64,000 bases of DNA from an uncultured Candidatus Saccharibacteria bacterium (GTDB lineage: Bacteria > Patescibacteriota > Minisyncoccia > Phycocordibacterales > UBA1006): NCBI GenBank assembly GCA_964507625.1, contig CAZDPR010000001.1, positions 81,499 to 145,498 of the forward strand, given 5' to 3'. The position numbers and the translations under genes were made by a program. This document shows positions 1 to 49,660 of the stretch, one piece after another (the stretch's first letter is position 1; every line of letters starts with the position of its first letter). A model generated the notes under the pieces. It had not been told where the DNA came from, did no database searches, and saw only the letters and a list, made by a program, of their open reading frames with translations.

Positions 1-111
1 AGCAGATTCAAAATATTTGTCAAGTGTTTTCCTATATTGTCTAAAATCTCCAACAACGGTGCTCAATTTATTGAGGACTTTCGATAAAAATTAAATATTC
101 ATTTTGTCAAA

Positions 112-2749: not shown

Positions 2750-2998
2750 ATGCTTGACTTATTAAAACTATTATGCTACAATGTTTTTAAGAAGATGAGG
2801 AATAACTATCCGCGAGATCCTGATTCTGTTGCTCTTTGTGAACTATTCGAAAGGAATATCCCCAGCATCATTTATAAAACGGAGATGGTGTTTGGAATAT
2901 TCCTTTCGAGGAGAAAGATTGGAAAGGCAGGTCCCTCTGCCGGTTCGGGAATTCCATGGACAGTTTTGAGCGTGCCACCGTTCAGACTCTTCGAGTAA
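2750..2998 (+). CDS. Hypothetical protein (82 aa)
   Basis: ORF track only. Confidence 0.25.
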   Translation: MLDLLKLLCYNVFKKMRNNYPRDPDSVALCELFERNIPSIIYKTEMVFGIFLSRRKIGKAGPSAGSGIPWTVLSVPPFRLFE

Positions 2999-3153
2999 TT
3001 ATTTGTTTTTACGAATAAGAACTTGATGTTGGTTTTTCAAACAAAATGGGCGGGTGAAGCAGTTCTGGTGGACGGAATCCTAGTATGGAAATTGGTAAAG
3101 GATTACGGTTAAGAAATCGTTCTCTTTTATTAAAGACCATAGTAAAGCTTCGG

Positions 3154-3244
3154 GAGAAGTGGGTGTTTTTAACAACCACTTCTCCTTTCTATCAGGATCT
3201 TAAATTTGTTTGAGGTTCTGTAGAAATATTTGTTCTTTGAAAAG
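3154..3244 (+). repeat. Cassette junction module copy 4: GGAGAAGTGG...CCACTTCTCC hairpin plus T-run, conserved hairpin ATCTTAAAT-TTG-TTTGAGGT (two U-G wobbles), CUGUAGAAA, GTTCTTTGAAAAG
   Basis: Alignment with the other copies. The arm substitutions here are tolerated only as RNA wobbles, which fixes the functional strand as +. Confidence 0.7.
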
Positions 3245-3317
3245 AGATGAAGTGAATATCTTGGATATTACCTTTTTAAACGTTTGTGTAGTATCCAGTA
3301 TATTCACTTCATCTTTA
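3241..3317 (+). repeat. Long hairpin (AGATGAAGTGAATAT...ATATTCACTTCATCT) 5' of the small ORF at 3330
   Basis: 15-bp perfect stem read directly. Confidence 0.5.
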
Positions 3318-3329
3318 AACCCATAAACT

Positions 3330-3488
3330 ATGTCCCAAAGGGAAGCACTTAAAGTAGCAGATATGTTGTTGGCCAAAAAAGGATTTAATCCTGACGGCAC
3401 CCCAAAAGGTAAGGGGCGGAAAAAGTCTCAGTCGTTCTTCGAAAGGAGGATGATCAAGACTGTCCCTATGGGTGGAAAGGTACGATAA
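3330..3488 (+). CDS. Small basic ORF (52 aa, MSQREALKVADMLLAKKGF...). Not in the ORF track because it is under 60 aa
   Basis: Correct cassette position just after the hairpin. Translated by hand. Confidence 0.2.
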   Translation: MSQREALKVADMLLAKKGFNPDGTPKGKGRKKSQSFFERRMIKTVPMGGKVR

Positions 3489-43920: not shown

Positions 43921-45030
43921 ATGAATATAAAACGTTTCCTTTCTATTTTCTCTTTAATTTCTCTTGTTTGTATTGGTGGATGGTTTGCTTTTGCGCAATC
44001 TCAACAAAGTTGTAGGGTTTATACATTAAATACCTGGAAAGGGTGTGCTCCTATTGTTGAAACAGCTGGGGTAATTAGCACTGATAAATATTCAGCAGTA
44101 GTTCAAGCATTTTTTAGTTCAAATGATGCAACTTTTACTATTTATGATTATCCAGAATTAGGTATTGAATTTAGTTCTGTTAAAGATGGTGACTTTAAAT
44201 ATGCTACAAAACTTGAAAAACAACAACCTGGTGTACGAAATCAATCCTTTCTTTTAAATGGACTAACTGAAGGAGAGGTTTATATATATCGAGCAGTACT
44301 TTATTGGACTGGTGGTGTTGAATATGGTACTACAAAAGAATTTGTTGTCGGTCAGAAAAAAATGGGTTCAGGTGGTTCAGTTACAGAAACTGTTACAGAT
44401 AGACCTATAACATCTTCTTCAAACTCAAACATCTCTCCTGATTCAGGGGTAAACCTTTCACCCTTCGGGAATCTTTTTGGAAACAAATCTACTCAACAAA
44501 CAAAAAAAACTATTTATCATCAAACAGATGAAAAATCAGGATTTACATTAGCTATTGATAACGGAGAATCATTGATTCGTCAGGGTGATACTGTAACTAC
44601 AAAAGTGCGTTATGAAAACAATAATACTCGTTCCTATAACAATGCAACGGTTGAAATATTTTTTCCAAAAGAATATTCTGTTGATTCAACAAACAAAGGA
44701 ATTGTTGACCGGGTGAGTAATAAAGTTATTGTAAGTATTGATCAATTTCCAGCGGGGGGATATGGGACAATTATTGCGACTGCCAGAGCTACAGGAAAAG
44801 TTGGAAACATTGATCAGGTATTAACTCAATCAACATTGACTGTGGGGAGTGTAAAACTTGCAGTAACTGATGCCGATGAATATGGGGAAGGTTCAGTGCG
44901 TAAAACTCAAAATTCTGTTTCAGGGATTGGATTTTTACCAGGAACATTAATTGGATGGATTGTTCTTCTTATCGTTCTTGCGCTCATTGTGGTTATCGGA
45001 CGACGGTATTTTATTAAAAAAGATTATTAA
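43921..45030 (+). CDS. Hypothetical secreted protein with a C-terminal TM anchor
   Basis: Signal peptide and terminal hydrophobic segment plus RRYFIKKDY. Confidence 0.45.
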   Translation: MNIKRFLSIFSLISLVCIGGWFAFAQSQQSCRVYTLNTWKGCAPIVETAGVISTDKYSAVVQAFFSSNDATFTIYDYPELGIEFSSVKDGDFKYATKLEKQQPGVRNQSFLLNGLTEGEVYIYRAVLYWTGGVEYGTTKEFVVGQKKMGSGGSVTETVTDRPITSSSNSNISPDSGVNLSPFGNLFGNKSTQQTKKTIYHQTDEKSGFTLAIDNGESLIRQGDTVTTKVRYENNNTRSYNNATVEIFFPKEYSVDSTNKGIVDRVSNKVIVSIDQFPAGGYGTIIATARATGKVGNIDQVLTQSTLTVGSVKLAVTDADEYGEGSVRKTQNSVSGIGFLPGTLIGWIVLLIVLALIVVIGRRYFIKKDY

Positions 45031-45133
45031 TAATATAAAAACAGTAATGTGTACACTTGCTGTTTTTTGTTTTTTTTGTTAGGATGTTCCTGTAGAAAAC
45101 AATATTGATTCTCCTGATGATATATTGTTTCTT

Positions 45134-45177
45134 ACATTCCCCTGTAGCTCTCTGCCGGCTGGCGGAGGTAGAGCAAA
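45134..45177 (+). repeat. Partial 5' copy of tRNA-Asn (ATTCCCCTGTAGCTC...TAGAGCAAACG) with a substituted D-loop
   Basis: 26 of 44 nt identical to the 5' half of the tRNA at 45440. Confidence 0.6.
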
Positions 45178-45194
45178 CGTTGTATACTTTTGTT

Positions 45195-45449
45195 ATGTTT
45201 TTTGTTTATTGTATTTTTAATAAAAACCATAACAAAATATACATTGGTCAAACAAGTGATATTCATGAACGAATAAAGTTACATAATAATCACGAATTTA
45301 AAAAAGGTTTTACCTCACGTTTTTCTGGCGAATGGAAACTTGTTTACTCAGAATCTTTTCAAACCCGACTAGATGCTTTGAAAAGAGAAAAGCAGCTAAA
45401 AAGTTTTCGTGGGAGAGAGTTTATTAAGAAAAATTATATTCCCCTGTAG
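45195..45449 (+). CDS. Stand-alone GIY-YIG nuclease domain protein
   Basis: KIYIGQTSDIHERIKLHN...REKQLK matches GIY-YIG motifs. The tracked N-terminal extension is just translation of the tRNA fragment. Confidence 0.6.
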   Translation: MFFVYCIFNKNHNKIYIGQTSDIHERIKLHNNHEFKKGFTSRFSGEWKLVYSESFQTRLDALKREKQLKSFRGREFIKKNYIPL

Positions 45450-45511
45450 CTCAGCGGTAGAGCAAACGACTGTTAATCGTAAGGTCGCAGGTTCGAATCC
45501 TGCCGGGGGAG
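45440..45511 (+). tRNA. tRNA-Asn (anticodon GUU), 72 nt, CCA not encoded
   Basis: Cloverleaf folded by hand: acceptor 7 bp, D stem GCTC/GAGC, anticodon loop CUGUUAA, T stem GCAGG/CCTGC, T loop TTCGAAT. Confidence 0.85.
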
Positions 45512-45566
45512 CAATATGCATTTTTAATGTATTTGAACTTATTATGTTTTTAGGTATACTGTATAT

Positions 45567-47663
45567 ATGGATGCATCTCAATTACATACACTCTTTTTAA
45601 TAATTCACTTATTAGGTGTCACCATTGGCGCAGGAGGTGCCTTTTTTTCAGATGGAGTATTTTTTACATCCATAAAAGACCGAAAAATATCAAAAGATGA
45701 ATTCGGTATTATTAAATATGCAAGCCAGATGACATGGGTTGGACTCACTTTATTACTTGTATCAGGAGCAGGACTATTCGGAATGAATACTGAAAGTTTA
45801 TCTAATTCTGTAAAGTTTCTTGTAAAGATGTCTATTGTTGGAGTACTACTCTTGAATGGGATTATTTTCCATATAGTCCACCTACCATTTATTGGGAAAC
45901 ATATTGGAGAATTTTTAGTCAAAAAAAACAAACCAAGTAGTTTTAAAGATGGGCCGTTTTTATTGTTCAGCGGGGTAATTTCTGTGACATCTTGGATTTT
46001 TGCATTAGTTTTAGGAGCGCTTGGATCCATACCTTTTTCTTATCTTGGAGCTATGAGTATATATATAGGAATAATCGCACTGGGAACATTGCTTTGTTAT
46101 CTCATGTTTTCCAAATTCCTTGACCATGATAATAAAAAAACATTAGTAAAAATTACCCTAATAAATATTATTGTGGTATTGATATTTTTTGGTAGTTCAT
46201 TATTAACCACTGGTTTTATTAGTAAAGCTCCCATAGTCGATGAAGCGAAAATAGAAGTTCCTGCAGATTCATATTCAAGAGATGACGTTGCGCTGCATAA
46301 CAATTCAGAGGATTGTTGGCTTATCGTAGACGAATTTGTTTTTAATGTAACAACAGCTTCTAAATTACACCCGGCATTGTTTAATTGTGGTTCCGATGCA
46401 AGTGAAAATTATCACAAGAATCATGGGACAGGTATACGGGATAAAATGATGGCTTTTAAAATAGGAACCTTGAATAATTTAAAAGGAGTTCATAATAGTG
46501 ATATTCCTTTTACAAAAGCCGAAAGTTTAAACCCAAAACCAGAACTATACGCTGTTGCAGGGTCTTGGGATAATAAAAACCTGATTGTTGTTGTAGAAAA
46601 GGATGCAGAAAAATTATTGTTTATAGACGGTACAACTCATGAGTCTATAGGCCGAATTCATGATATTGGATTTCAACCACATACTTCCGTATTTTCTCCT
46701 GATGAAAAGTATATGTATATTATTTCACGAGATGGATGGCTTACAAAGATCAATTTAAATAATCTTGATATTGAAAAAACAATTTCTGTTGGAGAAAATT
46801 CTCGGGGAACAGCACTGACTGAAGATGGTAAATATATTGCTATTGGAAATTACGAGCCCGGAAATGTAGTTATATTAGATGCGTATAGTATGGAGATTTT
46901 AAAAGTAATACCCTTAATTGGCGAGAAGGATGGGAAAAGTGTATCATCTCGGGCGGGAGCACTTGTTGAAAGTGGGCAAAAAATTATTGTTGCCTTAAAA
47001 GATTTAACAAGTGTATGGATTATAGACACCGATCAAGATTTTAAAGTTACGAATAAATTTGGAGGAATTGGAAATAATATTCCTGCTCTGCATGATGGAT
47101 ACTTAACGCCAAAAGGAAAACATTTTATCGTGTCATCTCAAGGATCAAAGACTGTCTGGGTATTGGATACAGAAACAATGAAGCCTATTGCAGAAATTGA
47201 AACAGGAGAAACGCCTCATACAGGACCTGGTGCGACATGGGGAGATACGACATATATTCCAGCTCTAGGCGAAGGACTCATTACCGCTATTGATATGAAT
47301 ACTTGGAAAGTGAAAGCCAAAATAAAAACAGGTGGGCCGGGATTGTTTATTAGAAGCTATTTAAAAGATCCATCATATCCCTATGTTTGGGCTGATACTG
47401 CCTTTGGGGATCATAATGATGAGATTTATGTAATTGATGCTCGAGTAAACAAAATAATAAAAACACTCAAACCTGTCGAAGGTGAAGGTTCTTGGCATCC
47501 AGAATTTACTTATGATGGTAAATTTGTATATATTGTTTCTCAAACTGCAAATGAAATAACTGTATATGATTCGTATACATTTGAAGTAGTAAAAAGAATC
47601 ACTGCAAATACTCCTTCTGCTGTTTCGAATGTAGGACTCAGGATTGAGGAACTTGGCTTGTAA
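45567..47663 (+). CDS. Membrane protein with N-terminal TM bundle, cytochrome b5-like heme-binding domain and C-terminal beta-propeller
   Basis: HNNSEDCWLIV...VT...LHP...CGSDASENY...H matches the cyt b5 fold pattern. Confidence 0.5.
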   Translation: MDASQLHTLFLIIHLLGVTIGAGGAFFSDGVFFTSIKDRKISKDEFGIIKYASQMTWVGLTLLLVSGAGLFGMNTESLSNSVKFLVKMSIVGVLLLNGIIFHIVHLPFIGKHIGEFLVKKNKPSSFKDGPFLLFSGVISVTSWIFALVLGALGSIPFSYLGAMSIYIGIIALGTLLCYLMFSKFLDHDNKKTLVKITLINIIVVLIFFGSSLLTTGFISKAPIVDEAKIEVPADSYSRDDVALHNNSEDCWLIVDEFVFNVTTASKLHPALFNCGSDASENYHKNHGTGIRDKMMAFKIGTLNNLKGVHNSDIPFTKAESLNPKPELYAVAGSWDNKNLIVVVEKDAEKLLFIDGTTHESIGRIHDIGFQPHTSVFSPDEKYMYIISRDGWLTKINLNNLDIEKTISVGENSRGTALTEDGKYIAIGNYEPGNVVILDAYSMEILKVIPLIGEKDGKSVSSRAGALVESGQKIIVALKDLTSVWIIDTDQDFKVTNKFGGIGNNIPALHDGYLTPKGKHFIVSSQGSKTVWVLDTETMKPIAEIETGETPHTGPGATWGDTTYIPALGEGLITAIDMNTWKVKAKIKTGGPGLFIRSYLKDPSYPYVWADTAFGDHNDEIYVIDARVNKIIKTLKPVEGEGSWHPEFTYDGKFVYIVSQTANEITVYDSYTFEVVKRITANTPSAVSNVGLRIEELGL

Positions 47664-47697
47664 CAAAAAACACCTAATTCATAGAGGTGTTTTTTGT
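47662..47697 (+). terminator. Intrinsic terminator AAAAAACACCTAATTCATAGAGGTGTTTTTTG
   Basis: Hairpin plus T-run. Confidence 0.6.
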
Positions 47698-47737
47698 TAC
47701 CGTTGGTAGGTAATCGAACCTGTGATAGAATTTTGGT

Positions 47738-48214
47738 ATGGAAAATAAAAATAATCATATTGTAAGATTAGATAATAATTTGACTGAAAACAAATCAGAA
47801 GGTCCAGTACGAAAATACCTAGAGATAATAAAAGCTTTTGAAAATTTACAATCTACTGAAAATAAGGAAAGAGAAAAGGATTTTCATGCTGTTTTAAGAA
47901 ATAATGAGCAAGCATATAGAATATTTAGAACACACAAACAAGGAAGTAATGATAAGGAAAAAATTGTTACCGATTCCATTAATGATAATGCATATGGTCA
48001 GAACAAGGAGTGTATAATCATGTATACCCTTAAAAAAAATATTAATGGAAACATAGGTGCGATAATCAGCAGTACGAGTGACAATATTGCTCAGGATCTT
48101 CCAGTTTTGGTTAAAAAAATTGAAAGTATTGTTAAACAAAAAGGTACAAAGATTATATTTATACCAGGTAAAACTTTTGAATTTGATGGTAGAGAGTGGA
48201 AAGAAATTACATAA
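47738..48214 (+). CDS. Hypothetical protein
   Basis: ORF track. Confidence 0.35.
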   Translation: MENKNNHIVRLDNNLTENKSEGPVRKYLEIIKAFENLQSTENKEREKDFHAVLRNNEQAYRIFRTHKQGSNDKEKIVTDSINDNAYGQNKECIIMYTLKKNINGNIGAIISSTSDNIAQDLPVLVKKIESIVKQKGTKIIFIPGKTFEFDGREWKEIT

Positions 48215-48483
48215 AGTAAAGGTGTTATATTGAATTGGAAATGTAAGTATTAGGACGAGGTAATTAATACTGAAATATCACCATTCTAACATAGTCTCAG
48301 GTTCGAAGTGTAACTGATAGTCTGAATATTGTAAACCAAAGTAAAGTGTTATTTGGTTTATATTTTTGGTATAATCAAAAAATGAAAACTCTCATTATTA
48401 ATAATTATTTATAACAATATTTTTTTATTTACAAGTAGTAGTCTATGACACAAAAAAACACCTTTCGGTGCTAATAAAAAATT

Positions 48484-48690
48484 TTAAGAAAACTGATCAT
48501 GTTCATCGCCTACTTCACGTTTAGATTGAGTAGGATGATTAATTAACTTACTCATCCTTGAAAGAATTTCAGCTTTAATTTGTTCAGTGTCAAAGGGGCT
48601 TTTTCCATCACTGAGTTCAATTGATCTCTGGAAAAACTTAAGCAAGTCTTCATCGCTGGTAAGTTTTAATTCTTCTGTTTTCATGCACAT
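48484..48690 (-). CDS. Hypothetical small protein
   Basis: ORF track. Terminator-like hairpin downstream on the minus strand. Confidence 0.3.
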   Translation of the reverse strand: MCMKTEELKLTSDEDLLKFFQRSIELSDGKSPFDTEQIKAEILSRMSKLINHPTQSKREVGDEHDQFS

Positions 48691-48945
48691 GTATTAAGAT
48701 TTTATTATATTTTAGCATACTAAAGTATTAATATTTGTCAAATGCCTACATGTTAATATTGAATTATAATTAATTACCATAGTTACCTTATATTGGCATA
48801 CATCTCATTAACCTCCGTATTTCCAATGAACAAGTTTTAAGTGTGATTAATAGTTGGAGTTGTATAAAAAGATATTCTTACACAAGGTCTTTTTATACGA
48901 CTCAAGCAAGGTTCAGAATTTTTTTAAATCTGATATACTATTTAT

Positions 48946-49401
48946 ATGAATACATTACATTTTTCAATTACTATTCATGCATCCAAAGAAAAAGTATGGC
49001 ATACCATGCTTGATGATGCTACATACCGAGAGTGGACGAAACCTTTTAATGAAGGTTCACGCTATGAAGGTGTATGGGAAACAGGATCAGAGATGAAATT
49101 TATTGGTTGTGACGAAAACGGAAAACAATCTGGTGGTATGTACAGCAGAATTGCAGAAGTTCGACCATATGCTTTTGTCTCTATTGAGCACCTTGGAATG
49201 ATTAATGAAAATGGTGAAATAGACACTACGAGTGAATCTGTAAAAAAATGGACACCTGCTTTTGAAAACTATACTTTTAAAGATGTAGATAGTGGAACTG
49301 AAGTATTGGTAGATATAGATATTTCTGACGAATGGAAAGATATGTTTAATGATATGTGGCCAAAAGCTTTGGCTAAATTGAAAGAAATTGCTGAGGAATA
49401 A
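48946..49401 (+). CDS. SRPBCC (START/AHSA1-like) domain protein
   Basis: N-terminal pattern typical of AHSA1/SRPBCC. Confidence 0.55.
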   Translation: MNTLHFSITIHASKEKVWHTMLDDATYREWTKPFNEGSRYEGVWETGSEMKFIGCDENGKQSGGMYSRIAEVRPYAFVSIEHLGMINENGEIDTTSESVKKWTPAFENYTFKDVDSGTEVLVDIDISDEWKDMFNDMWPKALAKLKEIAEE

Positions 49402-49660
49402 TATAGTAGATTCAGATTATTTATATGTGTTCAGGACGCGTCGATATGCTATACTAAAAGAATTATAAACTACCTTACTCTGTAACGAACTGAAAGTTCC
49501 GGTCTCGAGACGGGGAGCAAATTTGACAAAAAATAAAAGAACTGTATTATATTGAACAATACAGTTCTTTTATCCTTTGAGTTGTTATTGTATATTGCTC
49601 TGTAAACGTCATTTATTGGTTTTTATTGAGCAGTATTGCAAAACAATTAAATGTACAAAA

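Follow-up and report, generated by a model that had tools for sequence, protein, structure and literature searches.

A putative homing cassette of a small GIY-YIG nuclease gene, a GC-rich palindrome and tRNA fragments at the tRNA-Asn gene of CPR/Patescibacteria

Elements that integrate into tRNA genes are kilobases long, encode an integrase of the tyrosine or serine family and, with few exceptions, duplicate the 3' part of the gene. Short GC-rich palindromes can be mobile as well, examples being the GC clusters of yeast mitochondria, the palindromic elements of Rickettsia and the REP/RAYT system, and homing can be collaborative, in that a free-standing endonuclease works with an intron devoid of an open reading frame (ORF), as with F-CphI. 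Of the GIY-YIG enzymes, the intron-encoded I-TevI reportedly makes its cut 23-25 nt upstream of the site of insertion and acts on an operator to repress its own promoter. SegB of phages T4 and T6, a free-standing GIY-YIG enzyme located in a tRNA gene cluster, cuts within tRNA genes and gives rise to tandem segB-tRNA repeats by way of a microhomology that the 5' end of the tRNA shares with the 3' end of segB, and in T6 a C-terminal truncation of 28 amino acids still leaves a working repeat unit (PMC13096335). Here we analyze a small GIY-YIG gene that adjoins and enters the tRNA-Asn gene in a 64-kb stretch of DNA (contig CAZDPR010000001.1, hereafter the window; G+C 34.9%) from an ultra-small bacterium of the Candidate Phyla Radiation (CPR). 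We propose, with somewhat more confidence than doubt, that this gene together with a palindrome and pieces of the tRNA forms a compact selfish unit that is akin to free-standing homing endonuclease genes and specific to tRNA-Asn genes in CPR/Patescibacteria.

The only tRNA gene of the window is an intact tRNA-Asn(GUU) at 45440..45512 on the + strand, as are all features described below (ARAGORN; Rfam RF00005, 70.5 bits), in which CCA is not encoded. The nuclease ORF of 84 amino acids spans 45195..45449 (Pfam PF01541, E=1.4e-16, 61 bits versus a cut-off of 22.6). The initial annotation of this DNA had recognized the gene correctly and let it end inside the acceptor stem, whereas its stop codon TAG (45447-45449) in fact coincides with U8-A9-G10 of the tRNA, i.e., nt 8-10, just past the acceptor strand, such that the tRNA leader and tRNA nt 1-10 encode the last three codons and the stop. 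About 300 bp before the tRNA-Asn lies a partial copy of its 5' end, which our analysis confirms and which consists of two segments. The first, A1 (TTAcATTCCCCTGTAGCTC, 45132..45150), is a copy of the leader and nt 1-13, comprising the acceptor 5' strand, U8 A9 and the D-stem 5' strand, and is 18/19 identical to 45434-45452, the second copy (A2), which makes up the C-terminus of the ORF and the 5' end of the functional tRNA. The second segment, B1 (GGTAGAGCAAACG, 45167..45179), is a copy of tRNA nt 17-29, 13/13 identical to 45456-45468, and besides A1 and B1 the window contains no match to the tRNA-Asn of 13 nt or longer. Between the two, at 45151..45166, a GC-rich 16-bp palindrome (TCTGCCGGCTGGCGGA) takes the place of D-loop nt 14-16 (AGC); it is a copy, with two mismatches, of a perfectly palindromic family consensus, TCCGCCAGCTGGCGGA, and occurs once in the 64 kb. 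The D-loop of the fragment is thus replaced, as noted before, by 16 nt instead of AGC, yet not by random decay, as the conserved palindrome belongs to the cassette in nearly every carrier.

A total of 782 cluster-level relatives of the protein are detectable, nearly all of 81-88 amino acids and with Patescibacteria as source names. At least 466 species-representative genomes encode a relative (the scan covered one genome per species), of which 80 loci, designated L001 and so on, were fetched, all from Patescibacteria/CPR. The C-termini of the relatives read ...IPL, IPR, IPG, IPE or ...SPVAQW, which is the 5' end of tRNA-Asn translated in two frames. ARAGORN detected a tRNA-Asn(GTT) directly behind the ORF in 66/80 loci and never a different isotype at that place, and in nine more the anticodon (CTGT) is followed by an interruption of the tRNA-Asn. 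Of 64 analysable carrier loci, 50 have the stop codon of the ORF within the tRNA, at nt 8-10 in 36 of them, at the TAG of GGTAGAGC in the other frame in 11, and at a TAA of the anticodon loop in three, all three of which have TGG at nt 8-10. The palindrome (at most 3 mismatches) is found 26-59 nt before the ORF in 79/80 loci and the remaining one, L063, carries a compensated variant, TCCGCTGGCCAGCGGA. As the same collinear order of A1, palindrome, B1 (a piece of tRNA nt 17-30) and ORF, with tRNA-Asn behind, recurs in 79/80 independently assembled loci, a chance origin is excluded, and the conservation of this order among carriers shows the upstream fragment to be maintained as a component of the element rather than left as a passive scar.

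The two tRNA segments of the fragment relate to the local tRNA in different ways. The acceptor part of A1 is 7/7 identical to the local tRNA in 40/51 canonical loci and matches its own tRNA at 6.63/7 positions on average, compared to 4.85/7 for the tRNAs of other loci (permutation p<0.0005). B1 is eroded from its 3' side and reaches at most the anticodon (CTGT); its host-specific match run averages 2.7 nt with its own tRNA and 0.78 with those of other loci. In most loci B1 is host-like, and in about a dozen it is clearly foreign to the local tRNA.

We looked for an empty site in related genomes and found it in L081, which is syntenic with the window on both sides, over about 7 kb upstream (~36.9-43.4 kb) and downstream beginning at 49.56 kb. 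In L081 the same upstream gene end, terminator hairpin and TGCTAGTAT box are followed directly by a 100% identical tRNA-Asn, and neither palindrome nor ORF is present at this locus. The same site is therefore polymorphic for presence and absence of the cassette, and the comparison shows that one insertion between tRNA nt 13 and 14 would suffice to explain the occupied allele. Since A1 holds the same position relative to the upstream gene, the terminator and the promoter as the tRNA 5' end of L081, we interpret A1 as the original 5' end of the resident tRNA. A metagenome scan with the anticodon arm of the window returned 15 tRNA-Asn loci, among them L082, an occupied allele close to L001; ten of the 15 loci with this anticodon arm are empty. 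The empty/occupied pairs L083/L036, L092/L001, L091/L048 and L085/L043 share only a neighbouring gene or downstream DNA. A uniform arrangement in all relatives, which the initial annotation had named as evidence against an insertion, does hold among carriers, but it does not speak against mobility, as syntenic non-carriers exist.

Comparison with L001, the nearest carrier, in which the cassette occupies the same site, bears on its age. Nucleotide identity between the window and L001 is 58% in the upstream gene end and intergenic DNA, 85-93% from A1 through the ORF, complete in the tRNA (73/73, the same holding for the tRNA of L081) and 46% downstream. The ratio of nonsynonymous (dN, 0.038) to synonymous divergence (dS, 0.50) in the ORF is 0.08, whereas dS of four flanking genes is 1.2-1.6, and the proportion of synonymous differences (pS) is 0.36 in the ORF versus 0.63 in the flanks (binomial p=3e-5). 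From these values the ORF is judged to be under strong purifying selection, and, barring constraint on its synonymous sites, the cassette seems to postdate the split between its two hosts. In the protein tree the nearest neighbour belongs to the same CPR class in 21/32 labelled cases (p=0.0025), suggesting that long-term inheritance has been mostly within lineages; the ORFs of L004 and L014 are 86% identical and their flanks are unrelated.

Several loci appear to have been invaded more than once. L053 and L063 each carry two tandem units, L026 a full unit followed by a 5'-truncated one, with both B segments of one type (GCAGTTG...) that differs from the functional tRNA (GCAGAGGACT), and L048 an ORF-less mini-unit, and in L058, L044 and L030 older decayed fragments lie further upstream. 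In L049, A1 (TCCGGCG, with GCGC as D-stem) finds its complement in a 3' tRNA fragment, …CGCCGGAGC, located 19 nt downstream of a functional tRNA of another type, whereas B1 is of the functional type; this pairing places the boundary between resident and incoming DNA at the palindrome. In L043, L045, L068 and L080 a functional tRNA is surrounded by defunct remnants of a different tRNA-Asn type and the junctions carry palindromes; judging from these sequences, an entire substitute tRNA appears to have come in with the elements. L052 (2030-2290) has an ectopic palindrome-B1-ORF copy, of the form palindrome-GGCAGA-ORF, directly upstream of a leucyl-tRNA synthetase gene, without tRNA, A1 or ATG, which is probably decaying. 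The syntenic empty site, the dS that is lower than in the flanks, the tandem re-insertions and the foreign tRNA segments together support a mobile insertion, in line with the small insertion of free-standing homing-endonuclease type, duplicating part of its tRNA target, that had been suggested from the window. The ORF is free-standing in that it lies outside any intron or intein, between a tRNA fragment and an intact tRNA.

The phage enzyme SegB is similar in that its GIY-YIG gene adjoins tRNA genes, and the CPR family too has tandem arrays and an ORF 3' end that is the tRNA 5' end. SegB, however, is a phage protein, much longer than 84 amino acids and not bound to one tRNA isotype, whereas the CPR protein is chromosomal, consists of an 84-amino-acid catalytic domain apparently of the UPF0213/SLX1 type, is strictly associated with tRNA-Asn, sits inside the gene and is accompanied by a conserved palindrome. 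Neither the protein nor a motif of palindrome plus flanks was found in viral collections (IMG/VR included for the protein), leaving a phage vector unsupported.

An ancient and fixed arrangement, domesticated by the host, could also underlie the uniformity of these loci. The tRNA-like leader and hairpin would then be a regulatory or processing RNA element, passed down vertically from early CPR, for the co-expression of tRNA-Asn with a nuclease of the host, and carriers and non-carriers would differ by loss only. The architecture is indeed uniform across many CPR classes, protein-tree neighbours are mostly of the same class, selection is strongly purifying and the fragment stands directly behind the promoter; a near-invariant palindrome with compensatory changes is expected of a structure that is read out, and an A1 that tracks the local acceptor stem is expected if it pairs with the tRNA or mimics it. 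Nevertheless, we consider this explanation unlikely, as the syntenic empty site with an identical tRNA indicates that the cassette is dispensable, dS of the ORF is below that of the flanks, and some loci have units in tandem, mini-units devoid of the ORF, a copy at an ectopic site or B1/A1 segments of foreign type. Moreover, the D-stem of the upstream fragment no longer pairs in 12/51 loci, and the fragment of the window, when folded as RNA, is no more stable than its shuffles (z=-0.77), which is why the structural claim rests on the family alignment and not on the window sequence. An Rfam search of 44000-46500 (E<=1) returned the tRNA and chance hits only, with no family matching the upstream fragment and no ribozyme.

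The protein belongs to the GIY-YIG superfamily (PF01541) by profile, motifs, catalytic residues and alpha/beta fold. Residues Y5, Y16, G18, R26, H30 and E65 are invariant in 32 homologues, and the AlphaFold2 (AF2) model has a predicted local distance difference test (pLDDT) score of 95.6 and the order of strands and helices E-E-H-H-E-H-H. The closest entries of the PDB are, by sequence profile, UPF0213/YhbQ 1ywl and 1zg2 (weak, E=0.003-0.012) and, by fold, 1zg2, 6seh, 7cq3 and 7wme, also with weak scores (best E=3.7e-4; for SLX1 a template modelling (TM) score of 0.68 and a root-mean-square deviation (rmsd) of 2.2-2.4). Foldseek matched UPF0213, SLX1, I-TevI and UvrC, with UPF0213 and SLX1/At-HIGLE scoring well above I-TevI and UvrC; the similarity to I-TevI is weak (sequence E=0.016, Foldseek probability 0.35). 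Neither Pfam nor the AF2 model revealed a separate DNA-binding domain, the 84 amino acids comprising the catalytic domain and one C-terminal helix only. Because of the dN/dS of 0.08, the invariant catalytic residues and the confident SLX1/UPF0213-like model, we propose that the product is probably a bare nuclease of this type and active. UPF0213/YhbQ (COG2827) and eukaryotic SLX1 appear to be the closest relatives by profile and fold and share the single small GIY-YIG domain, but the sequence similarity is marginal, and SLX1 has a RING domain and needs SLX4. We know of no association of UPF0213/YhbQ or SLX1 with tRNA genes or palindromes. Matches in PADLOC, PHROGs and NCBIfam were partial and limited to the region of the GIY motif, and the protein was therefore not assigned to any defence system.

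The palindrome is clearly under selection, being too conserved for neutrality. Its six pairs are 99.2% paired over 43 distinct sequences, with compensatory double changes in three; the asymmetric variants, five with a wobble versus two with a mismatch, are too few to separate a function at the RNA level from one at the DNA level. In ~400 kb of related loci it is absent beyond the cassette neighbourhood, save for matches with 2-3 mismatches that are most likely due to chance. Within 5' fragments it takes the place of exactly 3 nt, at position 13/17 in most clades and elsewhere at 8/12 (L028, L041, L054, L058), 3/7 (L057) or 14/18 (tRNAs with long D-loops), and it is also found in its own loop as nested copies, at the T-loop junction and in the group I intron of L031. 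Nested double palindromes, seen in L006, L014, L019, L051, L055, L066 and L072 (e.g., TCCGCC-TCCGCCAGTTGGCGGA-TGGCGGA), have one copy within the loop of another or each arm doubled. Other GC-rich palindromes, CCTGCC..GGCAGG, occur in decayed tRNA-Asn 5' copies (L015 973-1010; L030 2088-2200; L084 537-700), and the same group also holds a long hairpin, CCCGCCCGCCATGCAAG...GCGGGCGGG; L084 has a ~330-nt ORF-less insert with a duplicated promoter, leader and tRNA nt 1-11, from which the GIY-YIG gene is absent.

As to the role of the palindrome, it does not qualify as a terminator, for no T run follows, nor as a Shine-Dalgarno element, as its GGAGG is 12-29 nt from the start codon and hence too far. 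Its resemblance to an acceptor stem is suggestive of mimicry. Our preferred guess is that it serves as a cis site for the SLX1-like nuclease and/or breaks the mimic of the target at the left junction; it may otherwise serve the nuclease as a binding site or operator, or be acted upon by a structure-specific nuclease. The mobile GC-rich palindromes mentioned above are likewise short hairpins of AT-rich genomes that turn up at new positions, including RNA genes and themselves, whereas the CPR palindrome, 16 bp in length, is confined to tRNA-Asn-derived DNA adjacent to one nuclease gene. Nor does the unit fall under REP/RAYT or IS200/IS605, as an HUH transposase is absent and the palindrome occurs once in 64 kb and, in the 80 loci, around the cassette only.

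One may ask whether the unit is a palindrome-bounded, transposon-like element, whose SLX1-like nuclease would attack DNA hairpins or cruciforms (in its own palindrome and at the stem-loop junctions of a tRNA gene folded as single-stranded DNA) and mobilize the whole unit or the palindrome alone without sequence-specific homing. The best structural matches of the protein, ahead of I-TevI and UvrC, are the structure-specific nucleases SLX1 and At-HIGLE, and the protein is without a DNA-binding domain, both of which agree with such a mode of action. So do the occurrence of the palindrome at the D-loop, nt 8/12, nt 3/7, the T-loop junction, its own loop and a group I intron, its invariable replacement of exactly 3 nt in 5' fragments, and the palindromes that, in L043, L045 and L080, bracket the ORF together with a complete foreign tRNA. 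Yet strand-transfer chemistry is not known for GIY-YIG enzymes, canonical loci have the palindrome on one side only, the insertion sites have no common sequence motif and the palindrome has not spread through the genome, with one copy in 64 kb and confinement to the cassette in the ~400 kb of loci, so that we regard an element of this kind as improbable.

Group I introns were encountered in the same tRNA gene. Five of the interrupted tRNA-Asn genes (L011, L013, L041, L051 and L076, at about 2760-3380) contain one above the Rfam threshold, the same split is found in L031, L035, L047 and L074, and the insert of L013 and of L074 carries an HNH endonuclease ORF; the split position is the position at which B1 ends. 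In the first five loci intron and cassette coexist. One might therefore view the locus as the scar of an integrase-type genomic island or as a degenerate group I intron with its intron-encoded endonuclease. tRNA genes are the classic integration sites, a decayed 3' tRNA fragment lies 4 kb downstream in the window, B1 of relatives ends at the anticodon (CTGT), the exact group I intron site in at least five carriers, and in NCBIfam the protein has a single match, below cut-off, in which it aligns with the N-terminus of endonucleases from group I introns. Against it, the unit has no integrase and the GIY-YIG gene is its only ORF, the duplicated part is the 5' and not the 3' one, the length is ~300 bp, no ribozyme is detectable in 44000-46500 and the tRNA behind the ORF is uninterrupted. 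We thus consider a scar of either kind very improbable, and the same three properties, namely absence of an integrase, 5' duplication and small size, lead us to reject the remnant of an integrase-type element that the initial annotation had offered. An intron origin is possible as past history and does not describe the present state.

The cassette does share with tRNA-targeting integrative elements that it inserts in a tRNA gene, carries a duplicate of the displaced segment and leaves a partial copy as a direct repeat; it differs in having no integrase, a 5' duplication (tRNA nt -5..29) and a length of ~300 bp. With I-TevI and other intron-encoded GIY-YIG enzymes it shares the catalytic fold, a conserved RNA gene as target and, in some carriers, introns in tRNA-Asn. 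The palindrome site is ~22 nt away from the anticodon, at which B1 ends, and there is overlap between the palindrome and the -35 position belonging to a -10-like box in the spacer before the ORF, features to be set beside the cutting distance and operator of I-TevI. Unlike in the I-TevI system, there is no intron or splicing in the window, gene function being preserved by a replacement 5' segment, and the CPR protein has no zinc-finger or helix-turn-helix domain. The cassette resembles a free-standing homing endonuclease gene, and a tRNA-integrating island in that it preserves its target, while lacking one defining feature of each: the DNA-binding domain of the former, and the integrase with 3' repeat of the latter. 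Full-text literature searches found no published description of it; in a study that dealt with insertions in the rRNA genes of CPR, GIY-YIG proteins are mentioned for rRNA insertions only (PMC11270868).

Read against the empty allele, the inserted unit consists of the 16-bp palindrome, the fossil of tRNA nt 17-~30, the AT-rich spacer, the 84-codon ORF and a replacement leader with nt 1-13. The replacement 5' piece joins the resident nt 14-76 and thereby regenerates an intact tRNA-Asn directly behind the ORF, and the resident nt 1-13 remain behind the native tRNA promoter as the partial copy. For such a homing cassette we propose the following course of events. The nuclease would break tRNA-Asn genes, and repair of the break from an occupied template would copy the cassette, using as arms the 5' tRNA copy (~19 bp) on the left and the tRNA itself on the right. 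As these homology arms are tRNA only, no host-specific flank would be needed and the cassette would be portable between genomes that share nothing but the tRNA. An occupied allele with a whole tRNA would stay vulnerable, hence the tandem arrays, and recombination between A1 and A2 would lead to precise loss and a restored empty site, hence the patchy distribution.

The old tRNA promoter would then drive both the ORF and the cell's tRNA-Asn. The presumed native promoter of the window, an extended -10-like box (TGTTAGGAT, 45077..45085), aligns with the TGCTAGTAT box of L001, the same box that precedes the tRNA in L081, and now stands 5' of the displaced tRNA fragment; a simple consensus promoter scan gave no call there. 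Among 64 loci, a -10-like hexamer is present 5-30 nt 5' of A1 in 45, compared to 11% of control windows, and 3-12 nt before the start codon in 21, with a peak at 6. In the window the AT-rich spacer (45180..45194) contains such a hexamer, TATACT (45183-45188), 6 nt before the ATG, and a Shine-Dalgarno sequence was not found on reading the spacer, which would fit an internal promoter yielding a leaderless mRNA; some lineages would use a -10 box just before the ATG in addition to the old promoter. Cleavage by RNase P at tRNA position 1 would strip the ORF of its last codons and stop, holding the level of nuclease low. The ATG at 45195 is probably the true start, as suggested by alignment with homologues of 82-84 amino acids. 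A public database entry, P0001, is a 110-amino-acid version (window 45105-45449) whose start lies upstream, within the tRNA-like fragment, which it reads through, a call that is probably wrong; because the database carries this version, an exact-protein look-up of the 84-amino-acid ORF came back empty.

Several points weigh against homing as we describe it. The protein is a catalytic domain alone, without the DNA-binding module that gives known homing endonucleases their long target sites, and we infer, rather than observe, that it cleaves tRNA-Asn genes and where it would do so. The occupied allele keeps an intact target with no obvious immunity. The protein tree, being largely coherent with CPR class, implies that much of the inheritance is vertical, and consequently the empty site could reflect precise loss rather than the ancestral state. 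The low dS comes from one 84-codon gene pair, the window versus L001, and homing alone does not explain the near-invariant palindrome or the exact 3-nt replacement at 3/7, 8/12 and 13/17. In L045, furthermore, A1 and B1 are of one type, which fits an insertion in the anticodon loop as well as one at nt 13/14. Insertion in the anticodon loop, with a separate replacement of AGC by the palindrome, was our first reading and is now less preferred than a single insertion at nt 13/14, because of the empty-site comparison, the foreign B1 segments, the pairing of A1 with the 3' fragment in L049 and the ectopic copy in L052; L045 and the rule of exactly 3 nt keep it alive.

Further features were noted on the 3' side of the tRNA. 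Directly behind the tRNA of the window, ~4 kb (45513-49518) are absent from the syntenic L081. They encode at 45567-47663 a 698-amino-acid protein with cytochrome-D1 and cytochrome-b5 domains, besides two smaller ORFs, and end in a decayed tRNA-Asn 3' fragment (49480-49518, from the anticodon loop to GGGGAGC), behind which the flank is that found behind the tRNA in L081; CCA is encoded in the tRNA-Asn of L001 and L081 and not in that of the window. From its layout this stretch looks like a second insertion at the tRNA 3' side, which the separate 3' fragment may mark. No recombinase domain was detected in 45567-47663, the only part of the 4 kb that was scanned. A direct repeat of the tRNA 3' end is found 20-650 nt downstream in at least 10/57 loci. 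L023 (~2930-3014), L028 (~2870-2998) and L055 (~1890-1991) contain downstream of the tRNA a 130-170-nt element without an Rfam match, which begins with the T-arm in inverted orientation (GGTAGGATTCGAA) and has tRNA nt 59-73 repeated directly at its end. In L019, L043, L045 and L049 the tRNA leader and trailer are complementary for 5-6 nt past the acceptor stem, with GC before position 1, and ORF and tRNA do not overlap; in these four it seems that the functional tRNA came in together with flanks of its own. About 20/80 contigs (e.g., L004, L005, L035, L054, L063, L065 and L072) end a few hundred bases after the ORF, several of them exactly at the tRNA 3' end, and tandem copies or variable DNA downstream of tRNA-Asn could cause these breaks.

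More speculatively, and as a possibility that we hold only tentatively, the cassette may represent a new class of mobile element. Its SLX1-like nuclease would read DNA structure, i.e., the tRNA gene folded into stem-loops or a four-way junction and its own terminal GC-rich hairpin, rather than a long sequence. The element would invade the sole tRNA-Asn gene of its host and survive by supplying a replacement for the 5' segment or, in long forms, for the whole tRNA-Asn, which amounts to a natural 'cleave-and-rescue' drive, and it would seed a palindrome that can be copied into new stem-loop positions.

If our proposal is correct, CPR/Patescibacteria harbour a widespread selfish element that is currently annotated only as 'GIY-YIG nuclease family protein'. 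Besides self-splicing and the 3' duplication of integrases, this would be a third way into an essential RNA gene, by which the element replaces the 5' end of the gene, borrows its promoter and takes its stop codon from the universally conserved U8-A9-G10. It would link structure-specific nucleases of the SLX1 type to mobile DNA, and the choice of target by a minimal nuclease of 84 amino acids would have to be explained without a DNA-binding domain. It would also account for the mis-called starts and may add to assembly breaks at this locus in CPR metagenome-assembled genomes. With its palindrome, tandem re-invasion, replacement tRNAs and group I introns, the locus would offer a natural system for the study of several parasites that, in very small genomes, compete over one tRNA gene.

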